From Eledone cirrhosa (lineage: Eukaryota): a DNA stretch of 64,000 nt. A program made the translations under genes and the position numbers. The stretch spans positions 366,730,001 through 366,794,000 of the forward strand of contig OZ024742.1 of assembly GCA_964016885.1 (NCBI GenBank), in the 5' to 3' direction. This document shows, one piece after another, positions 3,001 through 49,254 of the stretch. The notes under the pieces are model-generated. The model made no database searches, was not told the origin of the DNA, and saw only the letters and a list, made by a program, of their open reading frames with translations. How positions within the stretch are numbered: the first letter of the stretch is position 1; the number at the start of each line of letters is the position of its first letter.

Positions 3001-6000
3001 CTACCTACATTTAGCCAAAGTTATGTGACCAAGACACTAGTGTTTCAACTAACTACATTTAGCCAAAGTTATGTGACCAAGACACTAGTGTTTCAACTGC
3101 CTACATTTAGCCAAAGTTATGTGACCAAGACACTAGTGTTTCAACTAACTACATTTAGCCAAAGTTATGTGACCAAGACACTAGTGTTTCAACTGCCTAC
3201 ATTTAGCCAAAGTTATGTGACCAAGACACTAGTGTTTCAACTAACTACATTTAGCCAAAGTTATGTGACCAAGACACTAGTGTTTCAACTAAGTACATTT
3301 AGCCAAAGTTATGTGACCAAGACACTAGTGTTTCAACTACCTACATTTAGCCAAAGTTATGTGACCAAGACACTAGTGTTTCAACTGCCTACATTTAGCC
3401 AAAGTTATGTGACCAAGACACTAGTGTTTCAACTGCCTACATTTAGCCAAAGTTATGTGACCAAGACACTAGTGTTTCAACTAACTACATTTAGCCAAAG
3501 TTATGTGACCAAGACACTAGTGTTTCAACTAACTACATTTAGCCAAAGTTATGTGACCAAGACACTAGTGTTTCAACTAACTACATTTAGCCAAAGTTAT
3601 GTGACCAAGACACTAGTGTTTCAACTAACTACATTTAGCCAAAGTTATGTGACCAAGACACTAGTGTTTCAACTAACTACATTTAGCCAAAGTTATGTGA
3701 CCAAGACACTAGTGTTTCAACTAACTACATTTAGCCAAAGTTATGTGACCAAGACACTAGTGTTTCAACTACCTACATTTAGCCAAAGTTATGTGACCAA
3801 GACACTAGTGTTTCAACTGCCTACATTTAGCCAAAGTTATGTGACCAAGACACTAGTGTTTCAACTAACTACATTTAGCCAAAGTTATGTGACCAAGACA
3901 CTAGTGTTTCAACTAACTACATTTAGCCAAAGTTATGTGACCAAGACACTAGTGTTTCAACTAACTACATTTAGCTAAACTTGTGTGATCAAGACACTAG
4001 TGTTTCAACTAACTACATTTAGCCAAAGTTATGTGACCAAGACACTAGTGTTTCAACTAACTACATTTAGCCAAAGTTATGTGACCAAGACACTAGTGTT
4101 TCAACTACCTACATTTAGCCAAAGTTATGTGACCAAGACACTAGTGTTTCAACTGCCTACATTTAGCCAAAGTTATGTGACCAAGACACTAGTGTTTCAA
4201 CTGCCTACATTTAGCCAAAGTTATGTGACCAAGACACTAGTGTTTCAACTAACTACATTTAGCTAAACTTGTGTGATCAAGACACTAGTGTTTCAACTAC
4301 CTACATTTAGCCAAAGTTATGTGACCAAGACACTAGTGTTTCAACTGCCTACATTTAGCCAAAGTTATGTGACCAAGTCACTAGTGTTTCAACTAACTAC
4401 ATTTAGCCAAAGTTATGTGACCAAGACACTAGTGTTTCAACTAACTACATTTAGCCAAAGTTATGTGACCAAGACACTAGTGTTTCAACTACCTACATTT
4501 AGCCAAAGTTATGTGACCAAGACACTAGTGTTTCAACTGCCTACATTTAGCCAAAGTTATGTGACCAAGACACTAGTGTTTCAACTAACTACATTTAGCC
4601 AAAGTTATGTGACCAAGACACTAGTGTTTCAACTGCCTACATTTAGCCAAAGTTATGTGTCCAAGACACTAGTGTTTCAACTGCCTACATTTAGCCAAAG
4701 TTATGTGACCAAGACACTAGTGTTTCAACTGCCTACATTTAGTCAAATTTATGTGACCAAGACACTAGTGTTTCAACTACCTACATTTAGCCAAAGTTAT
4801 GTGACCAAGACACTAGTGTCTCAACTGCCTACATTTAGTCAAAGTTATGTGACCAAGACACTAGTGTTTCAACTACCTACATTTAGTCAAAGTTATGTGA
4901 CCAAGACACTAGTGTTTCAACTACCTACATTTAGCCAAAGTTATGTGACCAAGACACTAGTGTCTCAACTGCCTACATTTAGCCAAAGTTGTGACCAAGA
5001 TACTAGTGTTTCAACTAACTACATTTAGCCAAAGTTATGTGACCAAGACACTAGTGTTTCATCTAACTACATTTAGCCAAACTTATGTGACCAAGACACT
5101 AGTGTTTCAACTAACTACATTTAGCCAAAGTTATGTGACCAAGACACTAGTGTTTCAACTAAATACATTTAGCCAAAGTTATGTGACCAAGATACTAGTG
5201 TTTCAACTACCTATATTTAGCCAAATTTATGTGACCAAGACACTAGTGTTTCAACTAACTACATTTAGCCAAAGTTGTGACCAAGACACTAGTGTTTCAA
5301 CTAACTACATTTAGCCAAATTATGTGACCAAGACACTAGTGTTTCAACTGCCAACATTTAGCCAAATTTGTGACCAAGACACTAGTATTTCAACTAACTA
5401 CATTTAGCCAAAGTTGTGTGACCAAGACACTAGTGTTTCAACTAACTACATTTAGCCAAAGTTGTGTGACCAAGACACTAGTGTTTCAACTGATTACATT
5501 TAGCCAAAGTTATGTGACCAACACACTAGTGTTTCAACAGCCTACATTTAGCCAAAGTTATGTGACCAAGACACTAGTGTTTCAACTAACTACATTTAGC
5601 CAAAGTTATGTGACCAAGACACTAGTGTTTCTACTAACTACATTTAGCCAAAGTTGTGTGACCAAGACACTAGTGTTTCAACTGCCTACATTTAGCCAAA
5701 GTTATGTGACCAAGACACTAGTGTCTCAACTGCCTACATTTAGCCAAATTTGTGTGACCAAGACACTAGTGTTTCAACTGCCTACAGTTAGCCAAAGTTA
5801 TGTGACCAAGACACTAGTGTCTCAACTGCCTACATTTAGCCAAATTTGTGACCAAGACACTAGTGTTTCAACTAACTACATTTAGCCAAAGTTATGTGAC
5901 CAAGACACTAGTGTTTCAACTGCCTACATTTAGCCAAAGTTATGTGACCAAGACACTAGTGTTTCAACTCCCTACATTTTGCCAAAGTTATGTGACCAAG

Positions 6001-9000
6001 ACACTAGTGTTTCAACTGCCTACATTTAGCCAAAGTTATGTGACCAAGACTCTAGTGTTTCAACTAACTACATTTAGCCAAAGTTATGTGACCAAGACAC
6101 TAGTGTTTCAACTGCCTACATTTAGCCAAAGTTATGTGACCAAGACACTAGTGTTTCAACTAAATACATTTAGCCAAAGTTATGTGACCAAGACACTAGT
6201 GATTCAACTGCCTACATTTAGCCAAAGTTATGTGACCAAGACACTAGTGTTTCAACTGCCTACAGTTAGCCCAATTATGTGACCAAGACACTAGTGTTTC
6301 AACTAACTAAATTTAGCCAAAGTTATGTGACCAAGCCACTAGTGTTTCAACTAAATACATTTAGCCAAAGTTATGTGACCAAGACACTAGTGTTTCAACT
6401 GCCTACTTTTAGCCAAAGTTATGTGACCAAGACACTAGTGTTTCAACTAACTACATTTAGCCAAAGTTATGTGACCAAGGCACTAGTGTTTCAACTAACT
6501 ACATTTAGCCAAAGTTATGTGACCAAGACACTAGTGTTTCAACTGCCTACATTTAGTCAAAGTTATGTGACCAAGACACTAGTGTTTCAACTGCCTACAT
6601 TTAGCCAAAGTTATGTGACCAAGACACTAGTGTTTCAACTGCCTACATTTAGCCAAAGTTATGTGACCAAGCCACTAGTGTTTCAACTAAATACATTTAG
6701 CCAAAGTTATGTGAACAAGACACTAGTGTTTCAACTAACTACATTTAGCCAAAGTTATGTGACCAAGACACTAGTGTTTCAACTGCCTACATTTAGTCAA
6801 AGTTATGTGACCAAGACACTAGTGTTTCAACTACCTACATTTAGCCAAAGTTATGTGACCAAGACACTAGTGTTTCAACTAACTACATTTAGCCAAAGTT
6901 ATGTGACCAAGACACTAGTGTTTCAACTGCCTACATTTAGCCAAAGTTATGTGACCAAGACACTAGTGTTTCAACTAACTACATTTAGCCAAAGTTATGT
7001 GACCAAGACACTAGTGTTTCAACTGCCTACATTTAGCCAAAGTTATGTGACCAAGACACTAGTGTTTCAACTAACTACATTTAGCCAAAGTTATGTGACC
7101 AAGACACTAGTGTTTCAACTAAGTACATTTAGCCAAAGTTATGTGACCAAGACACTAGTGTTTCAACTACCTACATTTAGCCAAAGTTATGTGACCAAGA
7201 CACTAGTGTTTCAACTGCCTACATTTAGCCAAAGTTATGTGACCAAGACACTAGTGTTTCAACTGCCTACATTTAGCCAAAGTTATGTGACCAAGACACT
7301 AGTGTTTCAACTAACTACATTTAGCCAAAGTTATGTGACCAAGACACTAGTGTTTCAACTAACTACATTTAGCCAAAGTTATGTGACCAAGACACTAGTG
7401 TTTCAACTAACTACATTTAGCCAAAGTTATGTGACCAAGACACTAGTGTTTCAACTGCCTACATTTAGCCAAAGTTATGTGACCAAGACACTAGTGTTTC
7501 AACTAACTACATTTAGCCAAAGTTATGTGACCAAGACACTAGTGTTTCAACTAACTACATTTAGCCAAAGTTATGTGACCAAGACACTAGTGTTTCAACT
7601 AACTACATTTAGCTAAACTTGTGTGATCAAGACACTAGTGTTTCAACTAACTACATTTAGCCAAAGTTATGTGACCAAGACACTAGTGTTTCAACTAACT
7701 ACATTTAGCCAAAGTTATGTGACCAAGACACTAGTGTTTCAACTACCTACATTTAGCCAAAGTTATGTGACCAAGACACTAGTGTTTCAACTGCCTACAT
7801 TTAGCCAAAGTTATGTGACCAAGACACTAGTGTTTCAACTGCCTACATTTAGCCAAAGTTATGTGACCAAGACACTAGTGTTTCAACTAACTACATTTAG
7901 CTAAACTTGTGTGATCAAGACACTAGTGTTTCAACTACCTACATTTAGCCAAAGTTATGTGACCAAGACACTAGTGTTTCAACTGCCTACATTTAGCCAA
8001 AGTTATGTGACCAAGACACTAGTGTTTCAACTAACTACATTTAGCCAAAGTTATGTGACCAAGACACTAGTGTTTCAACTAACTACATTTAGCCAAAGTT
8101 ATGTGACCAAGACACTAGTGTTTCAACTACCTACATTTAGCCAAAGTTATGTGACCAAGACACTAGTGTTTCAACTGCCTACATTTAGCCAAAGTTATGT
8201 GACCAAGACACTAGTGTTTCAACTAACTACATTTAGCCAAAGTTATGTGACCAAGACACTAGTGTTTCAACTGCCTACATTTAGCCAAAGTTATGTGTCC
8301 AAGACACTAGTGTTTCAACTGCCTACATTTAGCCAAAGTTATGTGACCAAGACACTAGTGTTTCAACTGCCTACATTTAGTCAAATTTATGTGACCAAGA
8401 CACTAGTGTTTCAACTACCTACATTTAGCCAAAGTTATGTGACCAAGACACTAGTGTCTCAACTGCCTACATTTAGTCAAAGTTATGTGACCAAGACACT
8501 AGTGTTTCAACTACCTACATTTAGTCAAAGTTATGTGACCAAGACACTAGTGTTTCAACTACCTACATTTAGCCAAAGTTATGTGACCAAGACACTAGTG
8601 TCTCAACTGCCTACATTTAGCCAAAGTTGTGACCAAGATACTAGTGTTTCAACTAACTACATTTAGCCAAAGTTATGTGACCAAGACACTAGTGTTTCAA
8701 CTAACTACATTTAGCCAAACTTATGTGACCAAGACACTAGTGTTTCAACTAACTACATTTAGCCAAAGTTATGTGACCAAGACACTAGTGTTTCAACTAA
8801 ATACATTTAGCCAAAGTTATGTGACCAAGATACTAGTGTTTCAACTACCTATATTTAGCCAAATTTATGTGACCAAGACACTAGTGTTTCAACTAACTAC
8901 ATTTAGCCAAAGTTGTGACCAAGACACTAGTGTTTCAACTAACTACATTTAGCCAAATTATGTGACCAAGACACTAGTGTTTCAACTGCCAACATTTAGC

Positions 9001-10470
9001 CAAATTTGTGACCAAGACACTAGTATTTCAACTAACTACATTTAGCCAAAGTTGTGTGACCAAGACACTAGTGTTTCAACTAACTACATTTAGCCAAAGT
9101 TGTGTGACCAAGACACTAGTGTTTCAACTGATTACATTTAGCCAAAGTTATGTGACCAACACACTAGTGTTTCAACAGCCTACATTTAGCCAAAGTTATG
9201 TGACCAAGACACTAGTGTTTCAACTAACTACATTTAGCCAAAGTTATGTGACCAAGACACTAGTGTTTCTACTAACTACATTTAGCCAAAGTTGTGTGAC
9301 CAAGACACTAGTGTTTCAACTGCCTACATTTAGCCAAAGTTATGTGACCAAGACACTAGTGTCTCAACTGCCTACATTTAGCCAAATTTGTGTGACCAAG
9401 ACACTAGTGTTTCAACTGCCTACAGTTAGCCAAAGTTATGTGACCAAGACACTAGTGTCTCAACTGCCTACATTTAGCCAAATTTGTGACCAAGACACTA
9501 GTGTTTCAACTAACTACATTTAGCCAAAGTTATGTGACCAAGACACTAGTGTTTCAACTGCCTACATTTAGCCAAAGTTATGTGACCAAGACACTAGTGT
9601 TTCAACTCCCTACATTTTGCCAAAGTTATGTGACCAAGACACTAGTGTTTCAACTGCCTACATTTAGCCAAAGTTATGTGACCAAGACTCTAGTGTTTCA
9701 ACTAACTACATTTAGCCAAAGTTATGTGACCAAGACACTAGTGTTTCAACTGCCTACATTTAGCCAAAGTTATGTGACCAAGACACTAGTGTTTCAACTA
9801 AATACATTTAGCCAAAGTTATGTGACCAAGACACTAGTGATTCAACTGCCTACATTTAGCCAAAGTTATGTGACCAAGACACTAGTGTTTCAACTGCCTA
9901 CAGTTAGCCCAATTATGTGACCAAGACACTAGTGTTTCAACTAACTAAATTTAGCCAAAGTTATGTGACCAAGCCACTAGTGTTTCAACTAAATACATTT
10001 AGCCAAAGTTATGTGACCAAGACACTAGTGTTTCAACTGCCTACTTTTAGCCAAAGTTATGTGACCAAGACACTAGTGTTTCAACTAACTACATTTAGCC
10101 AAAGTTATGTGACCAAGACACTAGTGTTTCAACTAACTACATTTAGCCAAAGTTATGTGACCAAGACACTAGTGTTTCAACTGCCTACATTTAGTCAAAG
10201 TTATGTGACCAAGACACTAGTGTTTCAACTACCTACATTTAGCCAAAGTTATGTGACCAAGACACTAGTGTTTCAACTAACTACATTTAGCCAAATTTGT
10301 GACCAAGACACTAGTGTTTCAACTAACTACATTTAGTCAAAGTTATGTGACCAAGGCACTAGTGTTTCAACTAACTACATTTAGCCAAAGTTGTGACCAA
10401 GACACTAGTGTTTCAACTGCCTACATTTAGCCAAAGGTATGTGACCAAGACACTAGTGTTTCAACTAACT
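1..10470. repeat. 48-bp tandem satellite (consensus GTGACCAAGACACTAGTGTTTCAACT(AA/GC)CTACATTTAGCCAAAGTTAT), about 218 copies, runs off the left edge
   Basis: Direct 48-bp periodicity. The AGTGAT variant recurs at about 43, 571, 1099 and 1627 (528 bp, 11 monomers). Diagnostic stops and indels recur at 3638 bp (3985/7623, 4991/8629, 6279/9917). Internal palindrome ACACTAGTGT. Confidence 0.99.
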
Positions 10471-14423: not shown

Positions 14424-14623
14424 NNNNNNNNNNNNNNNNNNNNNNNNNNNNNNNNNNNNNNNNNNNNNNNNNNNNNNNNNNNNNNNNNNNNNNNNNNNNN
14501 NNNNNNNNNNNNNNNNNNNNNNNNNNNNNNNNNNNNNNNNNNNNNNNNNNNNNNNNNNNNNNNNNNNNNNNNNNNNNNNNNNNNNNNNNNNNNNNNNNNN
14601 NNNNNNNNNNNNNNNNNNNNNNN
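14424..14623. other. assembly gap (200 N)
   Basis: Run of N. Confidence 1.
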
Positions 14624-16340: not shown

Positions 16341-17413
<1,073 letters not shown>

Positions 17414-17933
17414 ACCAAGGTTTCTTGGTGAGGTGGGTGACTTTGGACATCCTGCAGGACTAAAAACAAAACCTTTCAAAGGGCAAAGGAGCTCTTAAGA
17501 GTCAATGGCCATCCAAAATCACCGGGAGAGATGACCCCTTAGCCTTTGTCAAGGCAGAATTGTAGGAGAAGGAAAACTCTGATATAACACCTCCTACCCT
17601 GATGGTATCCAATGATGTTGACATGTTCTTCTTTTTGGTTAATATCATCTTGGTTAAGAGAGTGGGACTGGCTTTGTGCAGTGCCTTTGCTCACTATAAA
17701 AGCTTCACGGCAAAGGCATTGCTTTATATCTGGAGATCTCTCTGCACTTGTCGTCACAGGGTACCATGGGCCCAGCACTATGTGCCAATAATTGTCACAA
17801 GTATGGTGTTTGTACCAGAGTTTTCAAGTCGCTGGCTGGACTAAAAAGTCACACTCGTTCAGCGCTTCGGTAGGGGTTCTCCTACATGGATATAAAGTAG
17901 TGACCGTACTCGAAAACGAGTTGGCAGCCACCA
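17414..17933 (+). mobile_element. left-truncated copy of a 609-bp non-coding dispersed element (RTE 5'UTR-like left half)
   Basis: Near-identical to 34984-35592 and 41146-41754. Carries AGGAGAAGGAAAACTCTG, a motif I recall from RTE 5' UTRs; the full copies also carry GGCGACTAAA. Inserted in microsatellite. Confidence 0.85.
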
Positions 17934-17949
17934 TATGTATATATATATG

Positions 17950-17994
<45 letters not shown>

Positions 17995-18005
17995 GTATAT
18001 ATATG

Positions 18006-18037
<32 letters not shown>

Positions 18038-18105
18038 ATTATAAATATATATATGTATATATATATATGTATATATATATATGTATATATATATGTATAT
18101 ATATG

Positions 18106-18136
<31 letters not shown>

Positions 18137-18435
18137 GTATATATATGTATATATATATATATATGTATATATATATGTATATATATGTATATATATATGT
18201 ATATATATATGTATATATATGTATATATATATGTATATATATATGTATATATATATATGTATATATATATATGTATATATATATGTATATATATATATAT
18301 GTATATATATATGTATATATATATGTATATATATATGTATATATATATGTATATATATATATGTATATATATATGTATATATATATATGTATATATATAT
18401 GTATATATATATGTATATATATATATGTATATATA

Positions 18436-19937
18436 TTTAGCAGTATTGGTTATAGATGTTATCGCCGGTTTAGCAGGGTGGCAGAATCAGTGGTCGTTAG
18501 TTGCCAGTGTGGTAAGTGATAGTATCCTCGTTGGATATTCATATTGACATAGTGGGACCTTGGCCTGTCAGCGATGATTTTTCTTATCTACTTACCGTCA
18601 TTGACCGTTTTTCGAGATGGCCTGAGGCCATCCCCTTGAAAAACATCACCGCGGAGACAACAGCAAGTGCTCTTGTGTCTGGATGGATCTCTCGTTATGG
18701 AGTTCCATCCACAATAACTACCGACCGTGGACGACAGTTCGAGTCGAGCCTTTTCCTCGAGCTGTCAAAAATAATTGGTGCTAAACGCATTCGAACTACG
18801 GCATACCATCCCGCTTCGAATGGTATGGTGGAGCGTTTTCACCGCCAACTGAAGGCCTCCTTAATGGCCTCAATGGACTCGGCGCATTGGAGCGAGTACC
18901 TCCCTATTGTGCTACTAGGGATTCGGTCAACGGTGAAGGTCGACTTTGGATTTTCACCGGCCGAAGTACTGTACGGTGCCCCTCTGACGTTGCCCGGGCA
19001 AATGCTTGCCCCTATCGATCTTGATGCCCAAGATCACGCTTCCTACGTGTCCCGTTTGCGCTCCTATTTTCAGGATTTGCCGCCAATGGACACTAGGAAA
19101 CAATCTGTCAAGACTGCTGTCCCGAGGGATATTGCCTCGTGGACGCATGTCTTTGTAAGGAATGATACGGTGAAGCCCCCGCTCACACAGCCTTACACTG
19201 GACCTTGCCGTGTCTTAGCGCGCTCGGCTAAGCATTTCACGTTAGATATTAAGGGGTCCAGGGTGACAGTTACATTAGACAGGCTTAAGCAGGCGCACCT
19301 TGATACGGACGCTGTGGTTCCTGATCCACGAACCCCTTCGTATTTGCCTGTTGAGCGAACGACTGTTCCTGATCCACCATCATCGCCTGTCCCTACACCA
19401 CCACCATCGCCACGTTACAAGACCACGACCCGTTCAGGTCGTAGGGTCCACTGGCCCAAAAAACTTTGCAGCACCGTCTATATTTAGACTGTTAGCTGCA
19501 CCTTTTCTTTGCCTCTGTGTTTCTGCTTTTTCTTTGCCTTGTTTTGTTTATGCATGCATGTCGTGTTTTTTTTAACATTTTTCAAATCCTTTTACTGGAT
19601 TCAATTTTTGCTAGAGCGGATAGCTCCCCCTTGTTGCATTGTTCGCCATCTTACTCCACGTGTGAGTAATGACATCGATTTTCAATAATTTGAAAATCTG
19701 GCTCGAGGTACTGTAGTAAGACGCCTCACGCTCCTTGATAGAACAACGCCGGTTGAGAACGCCAGAAAGAAAAGACAGACAGCCACTGGAAAGCCGACGG
19801 ATCACACGCCAGATACCAGCCTCTGTACAACACCATTGTTTGTGCTACAACAAAAAATAAACGTATATTTCATCTCTAATTTCTGCTGTTATTATGTCAC
19901 TTGCATCTCGATAACATCTACAACTAATACTGCTAAA
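18436..19937 (+). mobile_element. Gypsy-derived 1.5-kb unit: inverted LTR terminus, integrase and LTR terminus, giving 29-bp TIRs
   Basis: 18436-18464 TTTAGCAGTATTGGTTATAGATGTTATCG matches the reverse complement of 19909-19937 at 27/29. Both ends are homologous to the LTR at 26705-27290. Flanked by (TA)n. Confidence 0.85.
18516..19487 (+). CDS. Ty3/Gypsy integrase catalytic core and GPY/F region; N-terminal HHCC domain missing
   Basis: HIDIVGP...[23 protein letters not shown] and [17 protein letters not shown] give an intact [12 protein letters not shown] follows. No stops in 323 codons. Confidence 0.9.
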
Positions 19938-19977
19938 TATATATGTATATATATATGTATATATATATATGTATATG

Positions 19978-20026
<49 letters not shown>

Positions 20027-20027
20027 G

Positions 20028-20124
<97 letters not shown>

Positions 20125-20137
20125 GTATATATATATG

Positions 20138-20168
<31 letters not shown>

Positions 20169-20220
20169 GTATATATATATGTATATATATATATGTATAT
20201 ATATATGTATATATATATGC

Positions 20221-20251
<31 letters not shown>

Positions 20252-20270
20252 TGTATATGTATATATATAT

Positions 20271-22563
20271 AAACCACCAAGAAGCTCCGGGACGCTATCC
20301 AGCCTTAACTTCTACAAGGCTAGCTGGAAAAATATTAAGAGAGAAATCCGGAAGCAAACATGGAGTGAAAAGACCGCCACACAAGACACTAACACACAAT
20401 TTCAAGATTTCATGACAACGATACACACTCTATGCAAAAATTTGTCCTTGAGAAAGAGGCAAACAGACACAAAAATCTTATTCCCAGAGATAGGAAAATC
20501 CTTGTGAGACGTAGAACTAAACTCTCAAACCAGTTGAATAGTCAACAAAACAAAAAACAAGAAGGAATCCTATTTGAAACGTGCACTACTTGACCCAGAG
20601 ATTGCACTCAAACTTTCCCATGAGAATGAGAGGGCAAAGAAAGAGAACAGGGCCATAGAAAACATTAAAACAAACCCTAATGCCTTCTTTAAATTTGCAA
20701 AAGAAACTGCCTCAGTACACTGCAAGATTGGGCCACTCTTCCACACGGACGGTTCATTAACCGAAAACCCCCAAGAGATATGTGAAATACTGAACGAACA
20801 GTACAAAAGTGTGTTCACATGTCCACTGAGGCACATGCAAATAACGAAGCCAGAGGAGTTCTTTGATCCCACAACACTACATGAAGAAATGGCAACCATC
20901 AACCACATAGACATAACGGAGGAGGATGTGGTGTACGCCATTGATGAAATTAGAACAGACTCGGCTGCTGGACCTGATGGATTCCCAGCAGTCCTCTTAA
21001 AAATATGTAAGGGGCCTTAGCAACTCTATTGACGACGCTCTTCAGAAGCTCCTTGGCTAGCGGTGTACTACCCAGGGAGCTGAAAGAAGGCACAATATGC
21101 CCTATCCATAAAGGAGGTAGCAGAGCGGAGGCCAAAAAATATAGGCCAGTCTCCCTGACATCGCATATCAGTAAGGTCACGGAGCGAGTCGTCAGAAAGA
21201 AACTGATCACTTTCCTCGAGGAAAATGACCGCCTGACTAGCCCGCAACATGGCTTCCGCCCAGGAAGAACCTGCCTTACACAGCTGCTACATCACTACGA
21301 CTGGGTACTGAGACAACTGCTAGACAGCTCACATGTGGGCGTGATATATCTTGACTCTACGAAGCCTTTGACAAGGTCGACCACGGAATGATATGTCACA
21401 AACTACACGGACTCGGCATAATTGGAAAAGTAGGTGAGTGGCTGCATGACTTCCTAAGGGACAGAAGCCAGGCAGTCGCAGCAAATGGGGCCCTCTCGAG
21501 GGAAACACCAGTAACAAGTGGGGTGCCCCAGGGGACAATCCTGGGACCACTACTGTTTTTGGTGGCTCTCTCAGACATGCCCTCTGTGGTGCATACAACA
21601 ACATCCCTCACTAGCTATATGCTGATGACACTAAGGTAGCACAGGCAATCAAAAACCCGGCTGACGCTGCCCTTTTACAGCAGGATCTGGATGCCATATA
21701 CAAATGGGCGGAAGAAAACAACATGCAGTTTAATGCTGGCAAATTCCAAACCCTACAATACAAACCTCCAAACAAACCTGCAAACACAAATATAGTGGAA
21801 CACAACTACACAGGACCAGGAGCGACGATGCATCTTTTCCCTCACACATTATGAAAGTGGCGACAATGTGCAGACGACTTGCTGGTTGGATCTTGAGGAC
21901 TTTCCGGACAAGAGATCGAGACACCATGTTGACACTATGGAGGACATTTGTCCTAAGCCGCCTGGACTACTGGCCACAGTTGTGGTCACCCCATAGTGTC
22001 AAACTAACCACGGAGCTTGAGGCAATCCAGCGAAGCTACACCAAGAGGATTGCCAAGATGAGGGAGACAAGCTACTGGGAGAGGCTAAAGGAACTGAACC
22101 TCTACTCCTTGGAGCAAAGACGGGAGAGATACGCAGTGATCTACATGTGGAAAATCCTGGAGGGACAAGCACTAAACTTTGGCATTGAAAGCTGGACCAA
22201 CCGCCGAACAGGACGTCACTGTGTGGTGCCAAAGGTCCCGTCTTACACATCCAGAATAAGGAGCAGGTATTGCAATAGCCTGGGATTCAAGGGACCTCAA
22301 CTCTTCAACAGGCTGGCGAGGGATCTGAGAGACTTGCATGACGTGGAGGTGGATGTCTTCAAGAAACATCTCGACACTTTGTTATCCAGGATCCCGGATG
22401 AGCCCAAAGCAAGACACGAGGGAAACCTAAGGGCAGCAGCAACAAACTCCCTCTTACACCAGTGGCCAACCTATACAGGCTGGAGATAAAATGTGTAGCA
22501 ACAAGGGCGGTGCCCCAGCATGGCCTCAGCCAGATGGCTGAAACAGGTAAAAGAGTAAAAGCG
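20271..22563 (+). pseudogene. 5'-truncated, frameshifted CR1/L2-group LINE ORF2 (reverse transcriptase) with 3' tail
   Basis: SAAGPDG, YRPVSLTSH, QHGFRPGR, GVPQGTILGPLLF, YADD and YSLEQRRERY are split over 4-5 frames. Ends in a hairpin plus GTAAAAGA repeats, inserted in (TA)n. Confidence 0.93.
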
Positions 22564-22577
22564 GATATATATATATG

Positions 22578-22648
<71 letters not shown>

Positions 22649-22675
22649 GTCTATATATATATATATATATATATA

Positions 22676-22751
<76 letters not shown>

Positions 22752-22823
22752 TATATATATATATATATATATATATGTCTATATATATATATATATATCT
22801 GTCTATATATATATATATATATA

Positions 22824-23010
<187 letters not shown>

Positions 23011-23020
23011 ATATATATTT

Positions 23021-23103
<83 letters not shown>

Positions 23104-23117
23104 ATATATATTTAAAA

Positions 23118-23186
<69 letters not shown>

Positions 23187-23253
23187 AAGGTTTAGCAAAT
23201 AATGAAAAAGTTTCAAAATAAATTTTAAAAAATTAACTTTACCTACTATAGTT

Positions 23254-23336
23254 ACCTTAACCGATCGGTTTCGAATCCCACAAATAAACGGGGGCCTTAC
23301 GGCCTTCGTTGCAAAGAGAGATTCTCGTCAGAAGGT
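23254..23336 (-). ncRNA. type I hammerhead ribozyme (GUU)
   Basis: Minus strand: ACCTT-CTGACGA-GAATC...GATTC-GAAA-CCGATCGG-TT-AAGGT. Confidence 0.85.
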
Positions 23337-23667
23337 TCTTTTCGTTCGAAGAATATAAAATTCTTGAATTTAAATGACGAACTAGCGCTATTCAAAACTG
23401 TTCCGGAGATGAGGGTGAAATGAGGTGGAATCAATTTTTTCAAGGGCCGAAGTAAAGACTCCTCTCTTGTTGAGTGCAAACTTGGTCGTCCTGACTGCTG
23501 CTAGTGATAGCCGCTGCTAGTTTGACCTACCTCCTTCTGCCTCTATCTTTACTTCGGCCCTTGAAAAAATTGATTCCACCTCATTTCACCCTCATCTCCG
23601 GAACAGTTTTGAATAGCGCTAGTTCGTCATTTAAATTCAAGAATTTTATATTCTTCGAACGAAAAGA

Positions 23668-23750
23668 ACCTTCTGACGAGAATCTCTCTTTGCAACGAAG
23701 GCCGTAAGGCCCCCGTTTATTTGTGGGATTCGAAACCGATCGGTAAAGGT
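23668..23750 (+). ncRNA. type I hammerhead ribozyme (GUA)
   Basis: ACCTT-CTGACGA-GAATC-(42-nt loop with GGCC-GTAA-GGCC hairpin)-GATTC-GAAA-CCGATCGG-TA-AAGGT. Confidence 0.88.
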
Positions 23751-23930
23751 AACTATAGTAGGTAAAGTTAATTTTTTAAAATTTATTTTGAAACTTTTTC
23801 ATTATTTGCTAAACCTTGTTTATATATGTTCTGGCTCGTTAATTTATTAACCTGCCATTGAACCACATTGGCATTTGGTTGGACAATACATGTGTCTCTT
23901 TGCGCCTTGTGCGTGAAGGAATACATATCC

Positions 23931-23998
<68 letters not shown>

Positions 23999-24045
23999 CT
24001 ATATATATATTGTTATACTTTGGGAGGGTCATGCAATATCGTAAG

Positions 24046-24187
<142 letters not shown>

Positions 24188-24190
24188 TGA

Positions 24191-24252
<62 letters not shown>

Positions 24253-24263
24253 GTATATATATG

Positions 24264-24336
<73 letters not shown>

Positions 24337-24342
24337 GTATAT

Positions 24343-25191
24343 ATATTTATTAAAATAACAGATTAAAGTTTAAGCAAAGAATCGCTGCTTTCACCCTTAA
24401 CGGGATCTTCTGAAGCTAACAAAGTCAATCTGTAAACGCAGAACTGGATATTTCAAAAACCGTTGCAACCGGAGGAAGACAGGAAGACGATACTTTGGTT
24501 CGTGGAAACGTTCGCTGGCAAAGAACGGGAAAAAACGAATATAATACGTCATTAATAGGAGCGGTGAAAAACAATTACGCGCAAAGATAAAACCACCTTT
24601 ATGGTATAAAAAAGTTCGTAGACTAATGTTCTCTTAGGTTGTTCATAGAGACGTTCTCTGGCAATGAACGAAAAAACGAAGATAATAAGTCATATGTGGA
24701 GCGTGGAGAACAATAGCACGCAAAGACAAAACCATGTAAATGGTATAGCGGAAATCGTAGACTAAAATTCTAACTAGGAGACCAAATGAATCTCCGCTAC
24801 AGAGTTAAGAACAAAGTAAATAAATACCATACAGAAGTAATAGAAACAAATAAATACATACACGCAAACAGATACGTACATACACAAGCATACGCAAAAC
24901 CTTACCATGGTATACAAAACCACGCACATATAAATATGTGTGTTTTGTCTTTGCGCGTAATTGTTTTTCACCGCTCCTATTAATGACGTATTATATTCGT
25001 TTTTTCCCGTTCTTTGCCAGCGAACGTTACCACGAACCAAAGTATCGTCTTCCTGTCTTCCTCCGGTTGCAACGGTTTTTGAAATATCCAGTTCTGCGTT
25101 TACAGATTGACTTTGTTAGTTTCAGAAGATCCCGTTAAGGGTGAAAGCAGCGATTCTTTGCTTAAACTTTAATCTGTTATTTTAATAAATA
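24343..25191. mobile_element. fold-back element: about 250-bp inverted arms, about 345-bp spacer, degenerate hammerhead-like core per arm
   Basis: 24343-24594 versus 24941-25191 differ at only a few sites. Each arm has CAGAAGA-TCCC-GTTAA-GGGT-GAAA-GCAGC. Confidence 0.92.
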
Positions 25192-25283
25192 TTTGCTCTA
25201 CGTTTCTTATATATTTGATATATATTTTCCTTATCGAGCCCTCTTTGGATTTTAGTCTTCAATTTTATTATTATTACTATATG

Positions 25284-25381
<98 letters not shown>

Positions 25382-25413
25382 TTTGTATATATATATATAT
25401 AAATATATATATG

Positions 25414-25533
<120 letters not shown>

Positions 25534-25574
25534 AATGTATATATATATATATGTATATGTATATGTATATGTAA

Positions 25575-25745
25575 ATAGACGTACAGTAGCATGTATATAT
25601 ATACATACAGGCACACATATATATATATGCACGTATCAGTTTACAAACGAACAAACCGAGCATTATAATAAATGTTCGGTAAACTGATACGTGCATATAT
25701 ATATGTGTGCCTGTATGTATATATATACATGCTACTGTACGTCTG
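25575..25745. repeat. short palindromic element; arms match the tail of the 48750-49250 family
   Basis: AGACGTACAGTAGCATG...GCACGTATCAGTTTAC pairs with GTAAACTGATACGTGC...CATGCTACTGTACGTCT. The right arm resembles 49100-49190. Confidence 0.85.
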
Positions 25746-26704
<959 letters not shown>

Positions 26705-26705
<1 letters not shown>

Positions 26706-29452
26706 TTAGCAGTATTAGTTATAGAGTAGTCGTTACTTTAACAGGGTAGATAATTGATTGATGGTCGTTAGTTGCCAGTGTGGTAAGTGATAGTATCCTC
26801 GTTGGATTATCTTGTTGACATAGACGTGAGGGAAGGTCCCTCGATCTATTTCCCATCTATTTACAATATTCCTTTCGTCAGGTCGCCAATTCCAGCAGCA
26901 TGGATTATAGATGTTATTGAGACACGAGTAACATAATAATGATTTCAACAGCAGTAATTAGAGATGAAATGTATGTTTATTTTTGATGTAGTACAAACAA
27001 TGTTTGTTAACTTATATGGTTGAAGTTACAGATAAAAAGAGGTTACAAAAGGGAATGTGCCATTGCGCCGTTAAGCCGGCGAGGCTAGGGGTGCAAAATC
27101 TCACCGTTACATTATGCGTGTTGCTGGTTCGAAGTTTCTGGTACAAGAGAGAGATTCTTCAAATCTTCGCGGGGAATTTCTTCCTCAGGGCGCGTAGGGA
27201 TACATCCTCTTCTACTGGCGCTGATTGGCTGAACTGAGCCAAATCACGCACAGAGAATGTATGTGAGTCCGCGGAATGTAGGTCACTACATCACCTCCGA
27301 CCAGATTTTCAGCCGAAAATCGATAACGAAGAAACCAAGGACCCACATATTATTGAATCAGCAAGAACAAATGCTGAAAGAGCACATCAGTGAAAAAATA
27401 ATTGAGCAGAAAGATTCATGCAAGAACAAAAAAAAATTAGGCGCGACGGGCCTTGTTGAGCCGCTGTCAAATGACTATCTGTTTTGTAGTTTAAACGAGA
27501 CCCTCAAGGGCCTACCAGAAAACAGATAAAGTCTGACATGGGCGAAGTTGCTGTTCATGCATTAAATGTTAATGGTAAGCGTTGTACCAGTAGCTGTGAA
27601 CGAAGCTATTATGGTAGTTTACCAGTGCTGGCGAGAAAATGATGGCCCCCAGATGTATTGTCGAATGTGCTGTGGAGCCAGGAAAAAATGGCTGGTTGCT
27701 TTGTAAAGAAAAAAAAGCAAGTTTAATCTGTAGGTGGACTGCAGTGTAAATTCCATAATTCGGGCGAATCCACAGAAGTGGCCGAAATGCTGACAAGTCC
27801 AGTTCAATTTGTTGCTTTCCCAGCGAGTCGGGCAAAAACAACAAGACGGATGGCCGTCATGGACGATCAGTGTGCAACGAGATGCGAAGCTGTTTGAGTT
27901 CAGCTGCAATTAGTATTCTCGTGTTGCGGTGCCTGTTTGAATCCAGTGGATTAAGCTCTGTGAGCTGCCAGCATGTGACAGCATCTGAACCAGGTGAAAA
28001 GGGACTCGCAGAATATTACGTTTGAAGAACATATACCAAGAACAACATGTTGGTGTGTGATAAAAAAAATGTGTGCATATGCAGGCATGTAAAACAGCAA
28101 AGAATGTGAATGAACAAAAACCATTAGCAAGCAAATAGCAAAAGAGCACAAAACAAGTAAATGCATTCTACAAAGAAATATGTGAATGTAAGAAACTGAT
28201 AATTCAAAGTCAATCTAGGGGAACAGAGAAATTGCTCAATAAGTTCAAAATTTTTCAAAGTCAAATAGTTCACACATCACCAGTGTACAGACACTAGTTC
28301 TATCTGGAAACTGAAAAAGAAGTTTGTTAATGCCGTTAGGGATTAGATGTATGGTGTTTTTGTGAGATTTCGCGGTCATCTTGTGTGGCATAAGGTTGTG
28401 TTGCTTATTGTTAAAGCAAAGTCAAAGAATCTTCTGTAGAGTAGGAGTCACCAAATATGGCAGCCACGTCTGACGCCATAATGGTGAGAAAACTACTGTC
28501 TCAATTTCTCGAGTCCCTGTGGTAACGAGACAGAAGGTATGGTGGTTGCGTCGGTAAAGTTACAAGCCGTTTTGAAATTTCCGATGTGTGGTGGTTGGCG
28601 TCGGTAAGGCTATGAAGTTGCCACTCACTGTTCCCTGTATTGGTCAGTGGTTAAACAACGCTGTCGCTGCTGCTGTCGTTGTTGTTGGTAGCCATCTTGA
28701 AATTTCCTCGTGGCGAAAAGTTTTTGAAATACTGCTAATTTTTCAAAAATCTTAAAAGGAATATTTTTTATTTTCGCAAGTTGCGAAAAGGTTGGCAACG
28801 TGGCAATAAAAGTTCAACTGAATAAAAAAGAAGGGCTGCGTTAAATTCTTACGTCGGGGTCACCACTTTAGCAGTATTAGTTATAGAGTAGTCGTTACTT
28901 TAACAGGGTAGATAATTGATTGATGGTCGTTAGTTGCCAGTGTGGTAAGTGATAGTATCCTCGTTGGATTATCTTGTTGACATAGACGTGAGGGAAGGTC
29001 CCTCGATCTATTTCCCATCTATTTACAATATTCCTTTCGTCAGGTCGCCAATTCCAGCAGCATGGATTATAGATGTTATTGAGACACGAGTAACATAATA
29101 ATGATTTCAACAGCAGTAATTAGAGATGAAATGTATGTTTATTTTTGATGTAGTACAAACAATGTTTGTTAACTTATATGGTTGAAGTTACAGATAAAAA
29201 GAGGTTACAAAAGGGAATGTGCCATTGCGCCGTTAAGCCGGCGAGGCTAGGGGTGCAAAATCTCACCGTTACATTATGCGTGTTTCTGGCTCGAAGTTTC
29301 TGGTACAAGAGAGAGATTCTTCAAATCTTCGCGGGGAATTTCTTCCTCAGGGCGCGTAGGGATACATCCTCTTCTACTGGCGCTGATTGGCTGAACTGAG
29401 CCAAATCACGCACAGAGAATGTATGCGAGCCCGCGGAATGTAGGTCACTACA
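26705..29452 (-). mobile_element. non-autonomous Gypsy-type LTR element with 586-bp LTRs (26705-27290 and 28867-29452)
   Basis: The direct repeats differ at about 4 visible sites. The minus-strand LTR reads TGTAG...CTAAA, with a tRNA-Trp PBS right after the 5' LTR. The 1.56-kb interior has no intact ORF. Flanked by (TA)n. Confidence 0.92.
28851..28865 (-). promoter_or_regulatory. primer binding site complementary to the tRNA-Trp 3' end
   Basis: Minus strand TGGTGACCCCGACGT, 1 nt after the LTR. Metazoan tRNA-Trp ends ...ACGTCGGGGTCACCA. Confidence 0.9.
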
Positions 29453-29664
29453 TATATATATGTATATATATATATATTTTACTGCATCTTTCTGTTCTTT
29501 TTTATTCTTTATACACGGCCCGGAGTATAGCTAAACTGGAATATACACCTATTTTCTGCATTTCGTTGAGCACCACTCTGTTGTAAGCTGACCTACCCCT
29601 ACACGGTACATAACAGCGTGTCCTGGAAAACCTTAATACACTCGTGCATAACCAATTATATATG

Positions 29665-29717
<53 letters not shown>

Positions 29718-29732
29718 GTATATATATATATG

Positions 29733-29784
<52 letters not shown>

Positions 29785-29790
29785 TATATA

Positions 29791-29837
<47 letters not shown>

Positions 29838-29848
29838 ATATATATATG

Positions 29849-29879
<31 letters not shown>

Positions 29880-29912
29880 GTATATATATATGTATATATA
29901 TATATATGTATG

Positions 29913-29946
<34 letters not shown>

Positions 29947-30020
29947 TGTCTATATATATATATATGTCTATATATATATATGTCTATATATATCTATCTC
30001 TATATATATATATATTTATA

Positions 30021-30107
<87 letters not shown>

Positions 30108-30257
30108 GTCTATATATAACATTAAGGATACTATTTATAGTTATGTATATTTTAAACCTTAAACACTGAATGTCAGTAATTTATTACTATCTTATTACCA
30201 GTAAGATAAATAGTTCAATGTAATAAGATAAGTTGTTCTACAGAGCAGTTATATAGA

Positions 30258-32770: not shown

Positions 32771-32800
32771 AATATATATATATATATATATATTTATAAA

Positions 32801-33071
32801 CCATATTTATTTCATTATACATATTTCAAGGACACCAAGTTAAATTATGGTGTGCTTTCATCAGCCAAAATATAATATAGATTAGTTTTATGAATAAATA
32901 TTGACATACCCTTAAAAAATGCAACCATTACTGTTGGAAGCTCCCGGATAGTCTTTTTAAGGGTATGCAAATATTTATTTTTAAAACTGATCTATATTAT
33001 ATTTTGTCTGATGAAAGCACACCATAATTTAACTTGGTCTCCTTGAAATATGTATAATGAAATAAATATGG
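32801..33071. mobile_element. fold-back element with about 117-bp arms and a hammerhead per arm (32808-32872 minus; 33000-33064 plus)
   Basis: TATTTTGT-CTGATGA-AAGCACACCA...TGGT(G/C)TCCTT-GAAA-TATGTA-TA-ATGAAATA, with an 8-bp stem I and an AUA triplet. Related copies at 54610-54870 and 58498-58680. Confidence 0.85.
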
Positions 33072-33191
33072 TATTAGAAATATAGTTTCCATTTGTTAAT
33101 ATCGTATGTTTACTCCAAATATTTGTTGAGTGCTTTATATCAGTTATAAAAATATTTGCTTGTTGTATCCCAACAATTTAAATAGAACTTT

Positions 33192-33350: not shown

Positions 33351-33786
33351 ATATTGTTATACTTTGGGAGGGTCATGTTGCCAATAAGAAACACACGCAC
33401 CAGTTGCTTTCACTTCAATTTATTATATATTTATAAATTTATAAATTTATAAATTTCTGGTTGGTTGGTTGGTTCCACAACCAGATAGTTGTTTATATAT
33501 AGTCATAGTTCTTTCGTCACACACTCTGTGACCTCTTCAGTGACTGGGGATTCCTTTCTTTGTTTCTGTGCCTCTCCTTTGTTCTGTCCTACGCCATTTT
33601 GTCACTGAAGAGGTCACAGAGTGTGTGACGAAAGAACTATGACTATATATAAACAACTATCTGGTTGTGGAACCAACCAACCAACCAGAAATTTATAAAT
33701 TTATAAATTTATAAATATATAATAAATTGAAGTGAAAGCAAATGGTGCGTGTGTTTCTTATTGGCAACATGACCCTCCCAAAGTAT

Positions 33787-33794
<8 letters not shown>
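33351..33794. mobile_element. fold-back element with 194-bp arms and a 56-bp spacer, built from Penelope-like 3' ends; hammerheads at 33502-33544 (minus) and 33601-33643 (plus)
   Basis: GTCA-CTGAAGA-G-GTCACA-GAGTG-TGTGAC-GAAA-GAAC-TA-TGAC. The outer ends ATGACCCTCCCAAAGTATAACAATAT match the 3' terminus of the PLE at 39569-39594. Confidence 0.92.
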
Positions 33795-34701: not shown

Positions 34702-35979
34702 CACACACACACACAAACACAACCACAGAAATACACACACACTTACATATACGTATATATATATACACACACATAGGAAAAAGTCTGACCCCACGGCAGA
34801 TCTAGAGCCGTTTCTGAGGCTATTATATATATATAATGTGTGTATATATATCATAGCCTCAGAAACGGCTTGCGCTCTGCCGTGGGGTGAGACTTTTTCC
34901 TATGTGTGTGTATATATATATACGTATATGTATGTGTGTGTATTTCTTTGTATGTATATGTATGTGTGTGTATTTCTTTGTATGTCAGGTCACCAGTTGG
35001 TGCTACTGGTAACATGTATCCCAGTACAACCTGTCTCATGGTCGGGTCGTTGGCGACTAAACTGGCAACCCCACCAAGGTTTCTTGGTGAGGAGGGTGAC
35101 TTTGGACATCCTGCAGGACTAAAAACAAAACCTGTCAAAGGGCAAAGGAGCTCTTAAGAGTCAATGGCCATTCAAAATCACCGGGAGAGATGACCCCTTA
35201 GCCTTTGTCAAGGCAGAATTCTAGGAGAAGGAAAACTCTGATATAACACCTGCAACCCTGATGGTATCCAATGATGTTGACTTGTTCTTCTTTTTGGTAA
35301 ATATCATCTTGGTTAAGAGAGTGGGACTGGCTTTGTGCAGTGCCTTTGCTCACTATAAAAGCTTCACGGCACAGGCATTGCTTTATATCTGGAGATCTCT
35401 CTGCACTTGTCGTCACATGGTACCATGGGCCCAGCACTATGTGTCAGTAATTGTCACAAGTGTAGTGTTTGTACCAGAGTTTTCAAGTCGCTGGCTGGAC
35501 TAAAAAGTCACACTCGTTCAGCGCATCGGTAGGGGTTCTCCTACATGGATATAAAGTAGTGGCCGTACTCGAAAACGAGTTGGCAGCCACCATGTATGTG
35601 TGTGTATTTCTTTGGTTGTGTTTGTGTGTGTGTGTGTATGTATATATATGTATATATATATATATGTGTATATGTATATGTGTATGTGTGTATGTATATG
35701 CATAATTACATACAGTGATTTAATGCTTATTTTCATTGATCCAGGAAATCGTTGAGTTCTCTAAATCTGCTATAAACATTTATACCCTTTTCTAAATATA
35801 TTTTTTTACTTATTATTTGTCGTATTCCCAACTTTTTATTTTTATTTTTATTTTCATATATACAATATTTACGTTATTTTATATAATATTTATGTTCTTT
35901 CTTATATATATATATAATTATATGTGAGTGTGTGTGTGTATGTATGTATGCATACGTATGTGTATGTATATGTGTGTGT

Positions 35980-36455: not shown

Positions 36456-36641
36456 TGTTTCTACTTTAGGCACAAGGCCAGCAATTACCCAGTACATTAC
36501 TGGTACTTTATTTTATCGACCCCGTAAGGATGAAAGGCAAAGTTAACCTCGACGGGATTTGAACTCAGACCGTAAAAGGACGTAACTATGCTGGAAAGCA
36601 TGGCGTCCGACTCTCTACCGATACTGCCAATCCACCGCCCT
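36456..36641 (-). mobile_element. tRNA-derived SINE, full length, with a 16-bp TSD
   Basis: The minus strand has an A-box-like GGCAGTATCGGTAG and the B box GAGTTCAAATCC. TSD TGACGATAGATATAAT at 36440-36455 and 36642-36657. Matches 62326-62500. Confidence 0.92.
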
Positions 36642-36708
36642 TGACGATAGATATAATGACAACCCCTTAGAGAAACTATTTTTCAACCCAGCTGACAAAA
36701 CATATAAG

Positions 36709-38103
36709 ATGGGTAATATCTATCCTACGAGGTTACCCTTTAATAAAAGAGTTTGCATACCACAGCAAATAGATGACGAGACAGAGGCACAATTCACCAT
36801 AGCTAGAAATAAGATTAGACAAATAGTAGACAGATATACTAAGAGACAGAGCAGACCAGAGGCCCAACAACTTGGGAGGAAACCTGTAGAAGGCTTGGTT
36901 AGCCTCAAGCAGCACACAAGGGATGGTGAGGTAGTGTGTCTACCCACAGATAAGTCTGGTAGGATGTCAATAGATAGCATGCCGAACTACATCGAGGCTA
37001 TGCAACCCCACATCACCAACACGAGCGAAGTTGCACAACAAACACACGATGGGAGAGAAAAAATCCTCAACGCTCACATGATGATGTGGACTGACATCCT
37101 AAAGCCAAGCAGACGCACTGCCAACAACTTCCAGGCGTCTAACAATGGCATAGCACACTTGTATGGGCTCCGCAAAGACCACAAGACAGTCGACGACCCG
37201 ACAACAGGACCACCAACAAGACCCGTATGCGGAGCTAATATAGCTAGCAACTACAGGATCTCCTACTTCCTCTCAATGGTTATACGCCCCATAATCAAGA
37301 TGTCCCCAGATGTATGTGAAAGTACAGAGGACCTCCTCAGCAGAATCAGTGAGTGCAACAAAAACAGGAGCCTTTCCAACTGCATAATAGGCAGCATGGA
37401 TGTGGTGTCACTGTACCCATCCATTAACATTGATTTTGCTGTGGAAAAATGTGTGGAGATGATCATTGAGAGTGAGGTGGAGTTCCGCGACGTCGACACA
37501 GACGAACTGGGCCTCCTACTTAGACTTACCTACGACACTGACTACCTAGACAGCCATGACCTTAGATGTTTCAGCCCTAGTAGACCTATAAGAGGTAGAC
37601 CCCCCACCATAACCTCAATGGCAAAAACGACTCCCATGGGAAGGTGGATTGGGTGGACCAAAGCTATACGGACCCCCCAAAACAATGATCAGGTAAGAAA
37701 AATGGTCGCACTTGCAATAGGGGCTAGTATCAAAACTACCCTAAAGGGCCACATATTTAAGTTCAATGAGAAAATCTACACCCAAAATGAGGGAGCAGCC
37801 ATCGGCGTCAGCATAGCTGGTGATGTTGCCAACCTTTTCATGGTATGGTGGGAAAGGAGACTTAAAGATCTCCTTAATGAAAGCTCCATAGACCTCATCA
37901 TGTACTCTCGTTATGTAGACGATATCAATATAGTTATAAGGACACCCCCACTAGAGAGCACTAACAAGTTTGATTTAGAACGTAGCACGATGGAAAGCAT
38001 CCAGCAGATAGCTAATTCCATACACCAGAGTATAACTGTAACTATCGACTTCTCTTCCAAACACCCTAACAATAGACTACCTGTATTAGACACAGAACTC
38101 TAG
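36709..38103 (+). pseudogene. PLE reverse transcriptase domain (continues after the stop in 38158-38601)
   Basis: RT motifs as listed for 36658-39592. Confidence 0.9.
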
Positions 38104-39069: not shown

Positions 39070-39342
39070 ATAAGTAAATAAAATAAAATAAATTAAGATA
39101 AATAAATACATACACAAGCACAATAACAACAAGCACATAAAAACACACACTAGTCACCCAGCAGACACAACACTATACACACTAGTCACACAGCAAATAT
39201 AACACTATACATACACGCAAACGCATGCGCAAAGAAGACAAAATAAAATAAAAAAACAACCAAATAAATAAATATATAGACAGACTGAATAAAAAAAATG
39301 GCGTAGACATACAGCACAACAGGAGGAAAAAAAATATAACAC

Positions 39343-39591: not shown

Positions 39592-39622
<31 letters not shown>

Positions 39623-39760: not shown

Positions 39761-39829
<69 letters not shown>

Positions 39830-49250: not shown

Positions 49251-49254
49251 AAAG

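Follow-up and report, generated by a model that had tools for sequence, protein, structure and literature searches.

A CsRn1-clade integrase remnant fused to the inverted end of a related LTR in Eledone cirrhosa

Introduction

Ginger1 transposons are recognised by terminal inverted repeats (TIRs) of 40-270 bp that begin with TGTNR, a CCGG/CCGT target duplication, YPYY, an H2C2 finger and a C-terminal OTU or Ulp1 domain (PMC2836005; this and all other papers are cited here from excerpts of their text). The Ginger2/Tdd criteria are an RTATAY target with a 4-bp target-site duplication (TSD), an H2C2 finger, no GPY/F, and TIRs of 45-297 bp that likewise begin with TGTNR (PMC2836005). For the origin of the Ginger1 TIRs, Bao, Kapitonov and Jurka (2010) hypothesised an integrase lying between its own 3′ LTR and another, upstream LTR in the opposite orientation (PMC2836005). 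Whether Ginger1 arose from Gypsy, and how an LTR element gains TIRs, are open questions, and the locus described here is a natural specimen of the proposed layout. In the literature searched (most subscription papers and Repbase lay outside it), we found no natural example of that layout and, for LTR-derived DNA transposons, no description of this structure.

Two further systems serve as points of reference. The CsRn1 clade of Gypsy elements is marked by TGT...AAA or ATA ends, a tRNA-Trp primer binding site (PBS), a CHCC Gag and a 4-bp TSD (PMC2582038, PMC3630058), and is well represented in cephalopods (PMC6238403). In one-ended integration by HIV and ASLV, the truncated end is joined, through host priming on short homology, to viral DNA or to DNA close by, in either orientation (PMC5041404). 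Arrays of transposable elements assembled at microsatellites are known in plants (PMC5907723).

Here, we analyse a 64,000-nucleotide stretch of Eledone cirrhosa contig OZ024742.1 (the window). A first-pass annotation had described 18436-19937 as a Gypsy integrase between TIRs made of two LTR right ends, and had read it either as an aberrant cDNA integrated through two U5 ends or as an incipient Ginger-like element. The locus consists of the 3′ part of a CsRn1-clade Gypsy element and the antisense U5 tip of a related LTR, the two being joined across 18 nt of imperfect similarity.

Anatomy of the locus

The features of the locus, and of the neighbouring element that is used throughout for comparison, are collected in Table 1.

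Table 1. Coordinates of the chimeric unit, its flanks and the neighbouring LTR element in the window
Feature	Position	Strand	Remarks
Left host flank: (TA)n/TATG microsatellite array	17933..18435	.	TRF and unit counts; units mostly 10-14 nt
Antisense U5 tip of long-type CsRn1 LTR	18436..18536	-	Attachment end adjoins TA array; collinear with LTR 26705-26807
Left 'TIR': terminal attachment block of captured LTR	18436..18464	+	27/29 inverted match to 19909-19937
Open frame, 323 codons, stop-to-stop	18516..19487	+	Codons 1-7 LTR-derived, remainder 5′-truncated CsRn1-clade integrase
Junction tract: 14/18 in-register match of integrase and antisense long-type LTR	18535..18552	+	Includes 9-mer 18544-18552; crossover ~18535-18537
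3′ untranslated region	19488..19711	+	Ends with PPT-position motif 19691-19709, common to neighbouring element (local alignment before neighbour's 3′ LTR)
Complete short-type 3′ LTR, 226 bp, TGT...AAA	19712..19937	+	AATAAA at LTR position 145
Right 'TIR': U5 attachment end of element's own 3′ LTR	19909..19937	+	Inverted match and end-motif scan
Right host flank: TA/TATG array	19938..20271	.	Strand polarity as left array
Neighbour: young non-autonomous CsRn1-type LTR element, 2748 bp	26705..29452	-	LTRs 26705-27290 and 28867-29452, PBS 28854-28865, TA flanks

At 19712, the right arm opens with TGTAGT as the neighbour's LTRs do, directly after a motif in the PPT position that the neighbour also has in this place, and the segment from there to 19937 aligns with the middle of the neighbour's long LTR. 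Together with the AATAAA, these features identify 18537-19937 as the ordinary 3′ end of an autonomous element, consisting of integrase, 3′ untranslated region and complete LTR. The right end had been annotated as a shorter variant of the LTR terminus; the terminus is indeed a related one, but it belongs to an entire 3′ LTR.

The annotated 29-bp inverted termini were reproduced at 27/29 identity (E 4e-6 within the 64-kb window). They are attachment ends common to two related LTRs; the 12-nt LTR end motif has exactly four copies in the window, at four LTR ends. The reported absence of RT, RNase H and gag was confirmed as well: with six Pol/Gag-Pol homologues as queries, matches in the microsatellite-masked window were confined to 18537-19481, and no remnant of these genes from the element was found. 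Sequence comparison revealed no second copy of the element in the 64-kb window. An Rfam scan of 17300-30200 for structured RNAs gave 125 matches, all within TA arrays and none at gathering score.

By unit counts, the top strand of the left array contains 37 G and no C; the two flanking arrays share their polarity and have similar unit sizes, and TATA adjoins both ends of 18436-19937. A 200-N assembly gap (14424-14623) lies inside TA repeats about 3.8 kb to the left of the element. This gap and the abundance of TA arrays in the region raise the question of an assembly or library chimera, in which two loci, each bounded by a TA array, were joined at the imperfect match. Amplification chimeras do form at short matches. 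However, the join lies in unique sequence and not in the arrays, the flanking arrays agree in polarity and unit size, and the left arm differs from both LTR copies in the window, so that it is not a collapsed copy of them. We therefore consider such an artefact very improbable.

The neighbouring element, whose interior is free of ORFs of at least 100 aa, has 586-bp LTRs that are 99.3% identical, with four substitutions. Its long LTR resembles a short LTR extended by about 190 bp, the extension carrying a second attachment end, and a decayed copy of the first is visible near 26894. About 130 bp inside its leader, an 11/12 copy of the LTR end motif (28728-28739, plus strand) stands in the opposite orientation and could pair with U5 in the RNA. 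The window has other repeats as well. A 48-bp satellite occupies 1-10470 with about 218 copies; its higher-order period is exact, at 11 units or 528 bp, and an ORF pattern is repeated 3638 bp apart. A repeat of about 600 bp has three copies at 96-98% identity (17414-17929, 34987-35588 and 41149-41750), each followed by TA/TG repeats; the first is short at its 5′ end and forms the far left flank of the element. Palindromic, MITE-like inserts in TA arrays were seen at 23184-23820, 24347-25188, 32800-33072, 33357-33788 and 54610-54821. Broken LINE remnants with RT matches lie at 20625-22456, immediately right of the element, and at 36586-40858 and 59606-61048. A LINE pair at 43921-44921 (plus strand) and 45449-48254 (minus strand) is arranged tail-to-tail across one TA array, the minus copy having a long open EN-RT frame, and a two-copy repeat (38621-39588 and 49252-50176) is 83% identical.

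The integrase frame

The open 323-codon DDE integrase frame of the first-pass annotation is present. It has a single Pfam match, rve, with D11, D70 and E106 in D-35-E spacing, and comprises the DDE core, a GPY/F region whose motif is degenerate at its third position, and a C-terminal tail. The HHCC domain is missing, as annotated, the frame starting at the catalytic core; HHCC was found upstream of the core in 170 of the 240 homologues listed. An in-frame stop stands just upstream, and within the frame no ATG occurs until codon 104, which lies past both catalytic Asp residues. The annotated GTG is in frame, but it was rejected as the true start of the integrase, for it belongs to codons 1-7, which are antisense LTR sequence. 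The frame deviates at 6 of the 95 highly conserved columns; for the 201 homologues that cover these, the median is two, and the difference suggests early decay or lineage drift. A PDB search matched 10 sequences, from foamy virus, Ty3 and one other integrase, which speak to the fold class only.

Retrotransposition of LTR elements requires a PBS and a 5′ LTR. The sole match in a PBS search of the window is that of the neighbour. With neither a PBS nor a 5′ LTR, the unit at 18436-19937 is predicted to be unable to retrotranspose.

Assignment to the CsRn1 clade

TGT...AAA termini are found on the element's own LTR and on both LTRs of the neighbour, in agreement with the CsRn1 criterion. An exact tRNA-Trp PBS is present in this sister element, the 5′ end of the studied element having been lost. 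Gag has gone from the element too; among the 120 long homologues listed, most of them Pol-only, CX2HX9CX3C (CHCC) occurs in five and CCHC in none, and the reverse transcriptase domain PF00078 occurs in 106. The TATA on both sides is compatible with a 4-bp TSD, and is uninformative inside a TA array. On the basis of the ends, the neighbour's PBS and the CHCC Gag of relatives, read alongside a tree that holds no named references, we assign the family to the CsRn1 clade.

The tree comprises the query and 58 of the 240 homologues, all of them search matches, without Ginger, Mag or named CsRn1/Kabuki references. Here, two Octopus bimaculoides proteins and the RT-bearing Pol P0128 form a clade with the query (support 100/99); the '_RT' labels were assigned by length, and at least one sequence so labelled (P0181) is without RT. 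Octopus bimaculoides also supplies the nearest named proteins among the matches listed, where the closest relative is 62-67% identical and identity of the integrase to RT-bearing Pol proteins is 50-63%. The Mag group, to which the first-pass annotation had pointed, was abandoned: the Mag lineage has the conventional CCHC Gag motif, which we take as a non-CsRn1 marker, whereas the Gag motifs of the relatives, the termini and the neighbour's tRNA-Trp-type PBS all point to CsRn1.

The left arm and the junction

The left ~117 bp had been described as the inverted terminus of the LTR at 26705. This arm is an antisense LTR terminus, but it is a sister variant rather than a copy, with 97 of 120 positions identical (81%), and it ends at 18536. 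Since the two LTRs of the neighbour are 99.3% identical to each other, the LTR at 26705 was rejected as the direct donor. Against 26705-26807, the outer block of the arm agrees at 44 of 61 positions and the inner block at 44 of 44 (Fisher p 6e-5, with block limits chosen after inspection). Comparison with the element's own LTR gives 27/29 over 29 bp and then 19/72, which is chance level; the left arm does not derive from it. The donor is a third, long-type LTR variant, probably itself a mosaic. The inner block (18493-18536 against 26764-26807) is a 44-bp stretch of 100% identity amid LTR ends that are otherwise about 72% identical, and may reflect recombination or local templating; no structural reason for it emerged from the predicted folds, which are weak (-9.4 kcal/mol for the captured U5 segment and -3.4 kcal/mol for the 44-bp block).

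A 9-bp microhomology had been proposed to join LTR and integrase. The 9-mer at 18544-18552 does match LTR positions 26815-26823, but the LTR part does not extend to 18552, and the 9-mer was rejected as the crossover. The 7 nt to its left already encode an integrase-like I-H-I, and homology to Pol proteins begins at 18537 (tblastn). The motif is carried by 218 homologues among the 240 matches listed; 207 of these have V or I in it, and 217 have H. The crossover is better placed at the left edge of the imperfect 14/18 tract. When the tract is scored against the neighbour's LTR, a stand-in for the unseen donor, the 14-match level is reached by 2 of 532,584 in-register 18-mer pairs, the junction tract being one of them, and this rarity argues for a homology-guided join. 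Duplex energy does not single out the junction, as 106 of 311 integrase 18-mers pair equally well or better somewhere in the neighbour's LTR.

The switch point lies inside U5, at LTR position 484 of 586, with the polyA signal at 310. Integrase sequence is kept through the tract, which would fit the minus-strand 3′ end of the integrase acting as primer. None of 75 protein matches to residues 1-45 covers residues 1-5 of the junction peptide (maximum coverage 89% of the 45 aa), in a search whose power is low with a best relative only 62-67% identical.

How the chimera may have formed

We lean, by a modest degree, to the view that host DNA repair produced an immobile, one-off chimera, through either a deletion between head-to-head insertions or a one-ended integration. 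A family that repeatedly inserts in TA microsatellites would have brought a long-type LTR on the minus strand and an autonomous copy on the plus strand together in or near one array. Priming on the antisense LTR would then have come from the integrase region, by the free 3′ end of its minus strand. This may have followed a break by which the DNA separating two head-to-head insertions was lost; in a variant, integrase would have inserted the good U5 end of a one-ended integration, and host polymerase would have joined the truncated end. The 'TIRs' would be a by-product of two related attachment ends.

Host repair accounts for a left arm that is collinear with a different, long-type LTR and for a right arm made of the PPT-position motif and a full 3′ LTR. 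The junction falls in a rare in-register match, and integrase sequence is retained there as expected of a primer-driven join. Ends of the family in TA arrays are locally dense, the four exact copies of the 12-nt end motif lying within 18436-28878, and the two oppositely oriented LINE copies that flank one TA array (849/1021 identical) are an in-window precedent for one family in one such array on both strands. The one-ended integrations of HIV and ASLV supply a documented parallel for host priming of a truncated end (PMC5041404). That the chimera is one-off and immobile agrees with the lack of a second copy in 64 kb, of a junction-bearing protein among 75 matches, of an ATG before both catalytic Asp, and of any PBS other than the neighbour's. 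Against host repair stands the microsatellite phase at the two ends, which weakly favours a single insertion with a 4-bp TATA duplication over two independent ones (LR 1.97). The position of the switch point in U5 is demanded by an origin in reverse transcription but not by a deletion. Furthermore, 317 integrase codons remain free of stops, which would require any deletion to have come soon after insertion, and the match tract was measured on a stand-in donor at a thermodynamically ordinary site, with 106/311 18-mers as good or better.

Several of these points bear on the two-U5 cDNA of the first-pass annotation. Its two U5 ends hold, but the element's own LTR is excluded as the source of the left arm (19/72 beyond 29 bp), and the route therefore needs two different RNAs in one particle. 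In that form, which we regard as possible though doubtful, two RNAs would be co-packaged, one autonomous, the other of long type and probably non-autonomous. The nascent minus strand would stall in the integrase gene and anneal to minus-strand strong-stop DNA from the other genome, yielding linear DNA with two tRNA-primed U5 ends that is integrated in one event by the integrase of the particle, as a dead-end copy. Besides R, U5 is the only region covered by strong-stop DNA, and the switch point lies in it; the crossover at the left edge of the tract with integrase sequence kept, the TATA at both ends and the array phase (LR ~2 towards a single insertion) also fit. A mosaic left arm (44/61 against 44/44, Fisher p 6e-5, post hoc blocks) is what recombination of these subfamilies in particles would lead one to expect. 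Subfamilies are documented to cross-package (PMC6894440), and HIV-1 to undergo aberrant strand transfers at limited identity (PMC12657518).

On the other side, this route would need several rare steps jointly, namely heterologous co-packaging and a switch onto a DNA template of opposite polarity, as well as a donor 3′ flap that is removed or absent and an integrase that accepts two non-canonical AAA ends. No described two-U5 provirus was found in the literature searched, the excerpts of two HIV-1 surveys (PMC12657518, PMC9278108) do not describe the structure, and those of two mouse ERV reviews had no relevant passage on inverted 5′ LTR insertions. The deletion between opposite-strand neighbours, which the first-pass annotation had itself named as the scenario against its reading, is at least as likely as the two-U5 cDNA. 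The window alone does not separate host repair from the cDNA route.

Excision and re-insertion of the U5-U5 unit by CsRn1 integrase acting in trans would make it an amplifying, non-autonomous DNA element, that is, an incipient Ginger-like transposon. Both ends are precise attachment sites adjoining TATA, the frame is open with an intact DDE triad, and the layout is the one put forward by Bao et al. for the origin of the Ginger1 TIRs (PMC2836005). Nevertheless, we consider this unlikely. There is one copy in 64 kb, the junction peptide is in none of 75 protein matches (at low power), and the inverted ends agree over no more than 29 bp and show no trace of homogenisation. The frame lacks HHCC and an ATG before the catalytic Asp, its GPY/F region is degenerate, and its 6/95 deviating columns compare with a homologue median of two. 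Moreover, LTR integrases normally only integrate. An excision route is unexplained even for Ginger1 (PMC2836005).

Implications

As a single truncated copy, the unit is an unusual relic and not a new system, probably a dead chimera of CsRn1-clade parts. The locus nonetheless points to a generator, a family that inserts into the same TA arrays in both orientations, and such a generator makes the idea of the Ginger1 origin testable within one genome. If the two-U5 cDNA origin is true, it would also follow that two non-canonical U5 ends can be used in vivo by a Gypsy integrase. A further proposal is that the TA-targeting CsRn1 family repeatedly makes U5-to-U5 units, and that this one, or siblings with a full integrase, move as DNA through the family integrase; we give it little credence. 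If such units do move as DNA, a transition from Gypsy to DNA transposon is in progress, along the route of Bao et al. to Ginger1 (PMC2836005).

Comparison with known systems

Like Ginger1 and Ginger2/Tdd, the element has a Gypsy-like DDE enzyme between inverted ends and no RT; unlike them, it has a full LTR and a PPT-position motif, and is present as a single copy in the window. Its inverted ends measure 29 bp and begin with TTTAG, in contrast to the TGTNR of 40-297-bp Ginger TIRs. Instead of CCGG/CCGT, its flanks are TATA in a TA array, and where Ginger1 has YPYY, H2C2 and OTU or Ulp1, its frame has rve only; PF02338 and PF02902 are absent from all 240 homologues listed. The TATA recalls the RTATAY target of Ginger2, and the neighbouring LTR element has TATA flanks too, whereas the lack of H2C2 and the presence of a GPY/F region, degenerate as it is, separate the element from Ginger2/Tdd. 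All integrase homologues listed are Pol-type, and Ginger sequences are absent from the tree. By these sequence characters, the element does not qualify as a Ginger. The suggestion of an incipient Ginger-like element is thus not borne out: the Ginger criteria tested fail, nothing points to further copies, and the integrase falls within RT-bearing Pol proteins of CsRn1 type.

The DNA-transposon-like geometry itself is real, two U5 ends flanking an integrase remnant. It resembles the hypothetical Ginger1 precursor (PMC2836005) in that an integrase region lies between its own 3′ LTR and an opposed upstream LTR. It differs in that truncation took the HHCC domain and the start codon, the termini are TTTAG and not TGT, and no evidence of mobility was found.

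With the CsRn1 clade (CsRn1, Kabuki, PwRn1 and AgCR; PMC2582038, PMC3630058), the element shares its ends, the PBS of its sister, the CHCC Gag of its relatives, and the DDE core with GPY/F. The 5′ two-thirds are gone, however, and the antisense U5 tip of another LTR subfamily stands in their place. Insertions in the window lie in TA arrays, whereas no preference for a target was found in PMC2582038; no report of a TA-targeting CsRn1 element was found in the literature searched (most subscription papers and Repbase lying outside it).

The aberrant integrations of HIV-1 and ASLV (PMC5041404) are similar in having one end made by integrase and a truncated end joined at short homology to element sequence. 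Those cases are experimental and retroviral, whereas the locus described here belongs to an invertebrate-type retrotransposon, and its appended piece ends exactly at a second attachment site.
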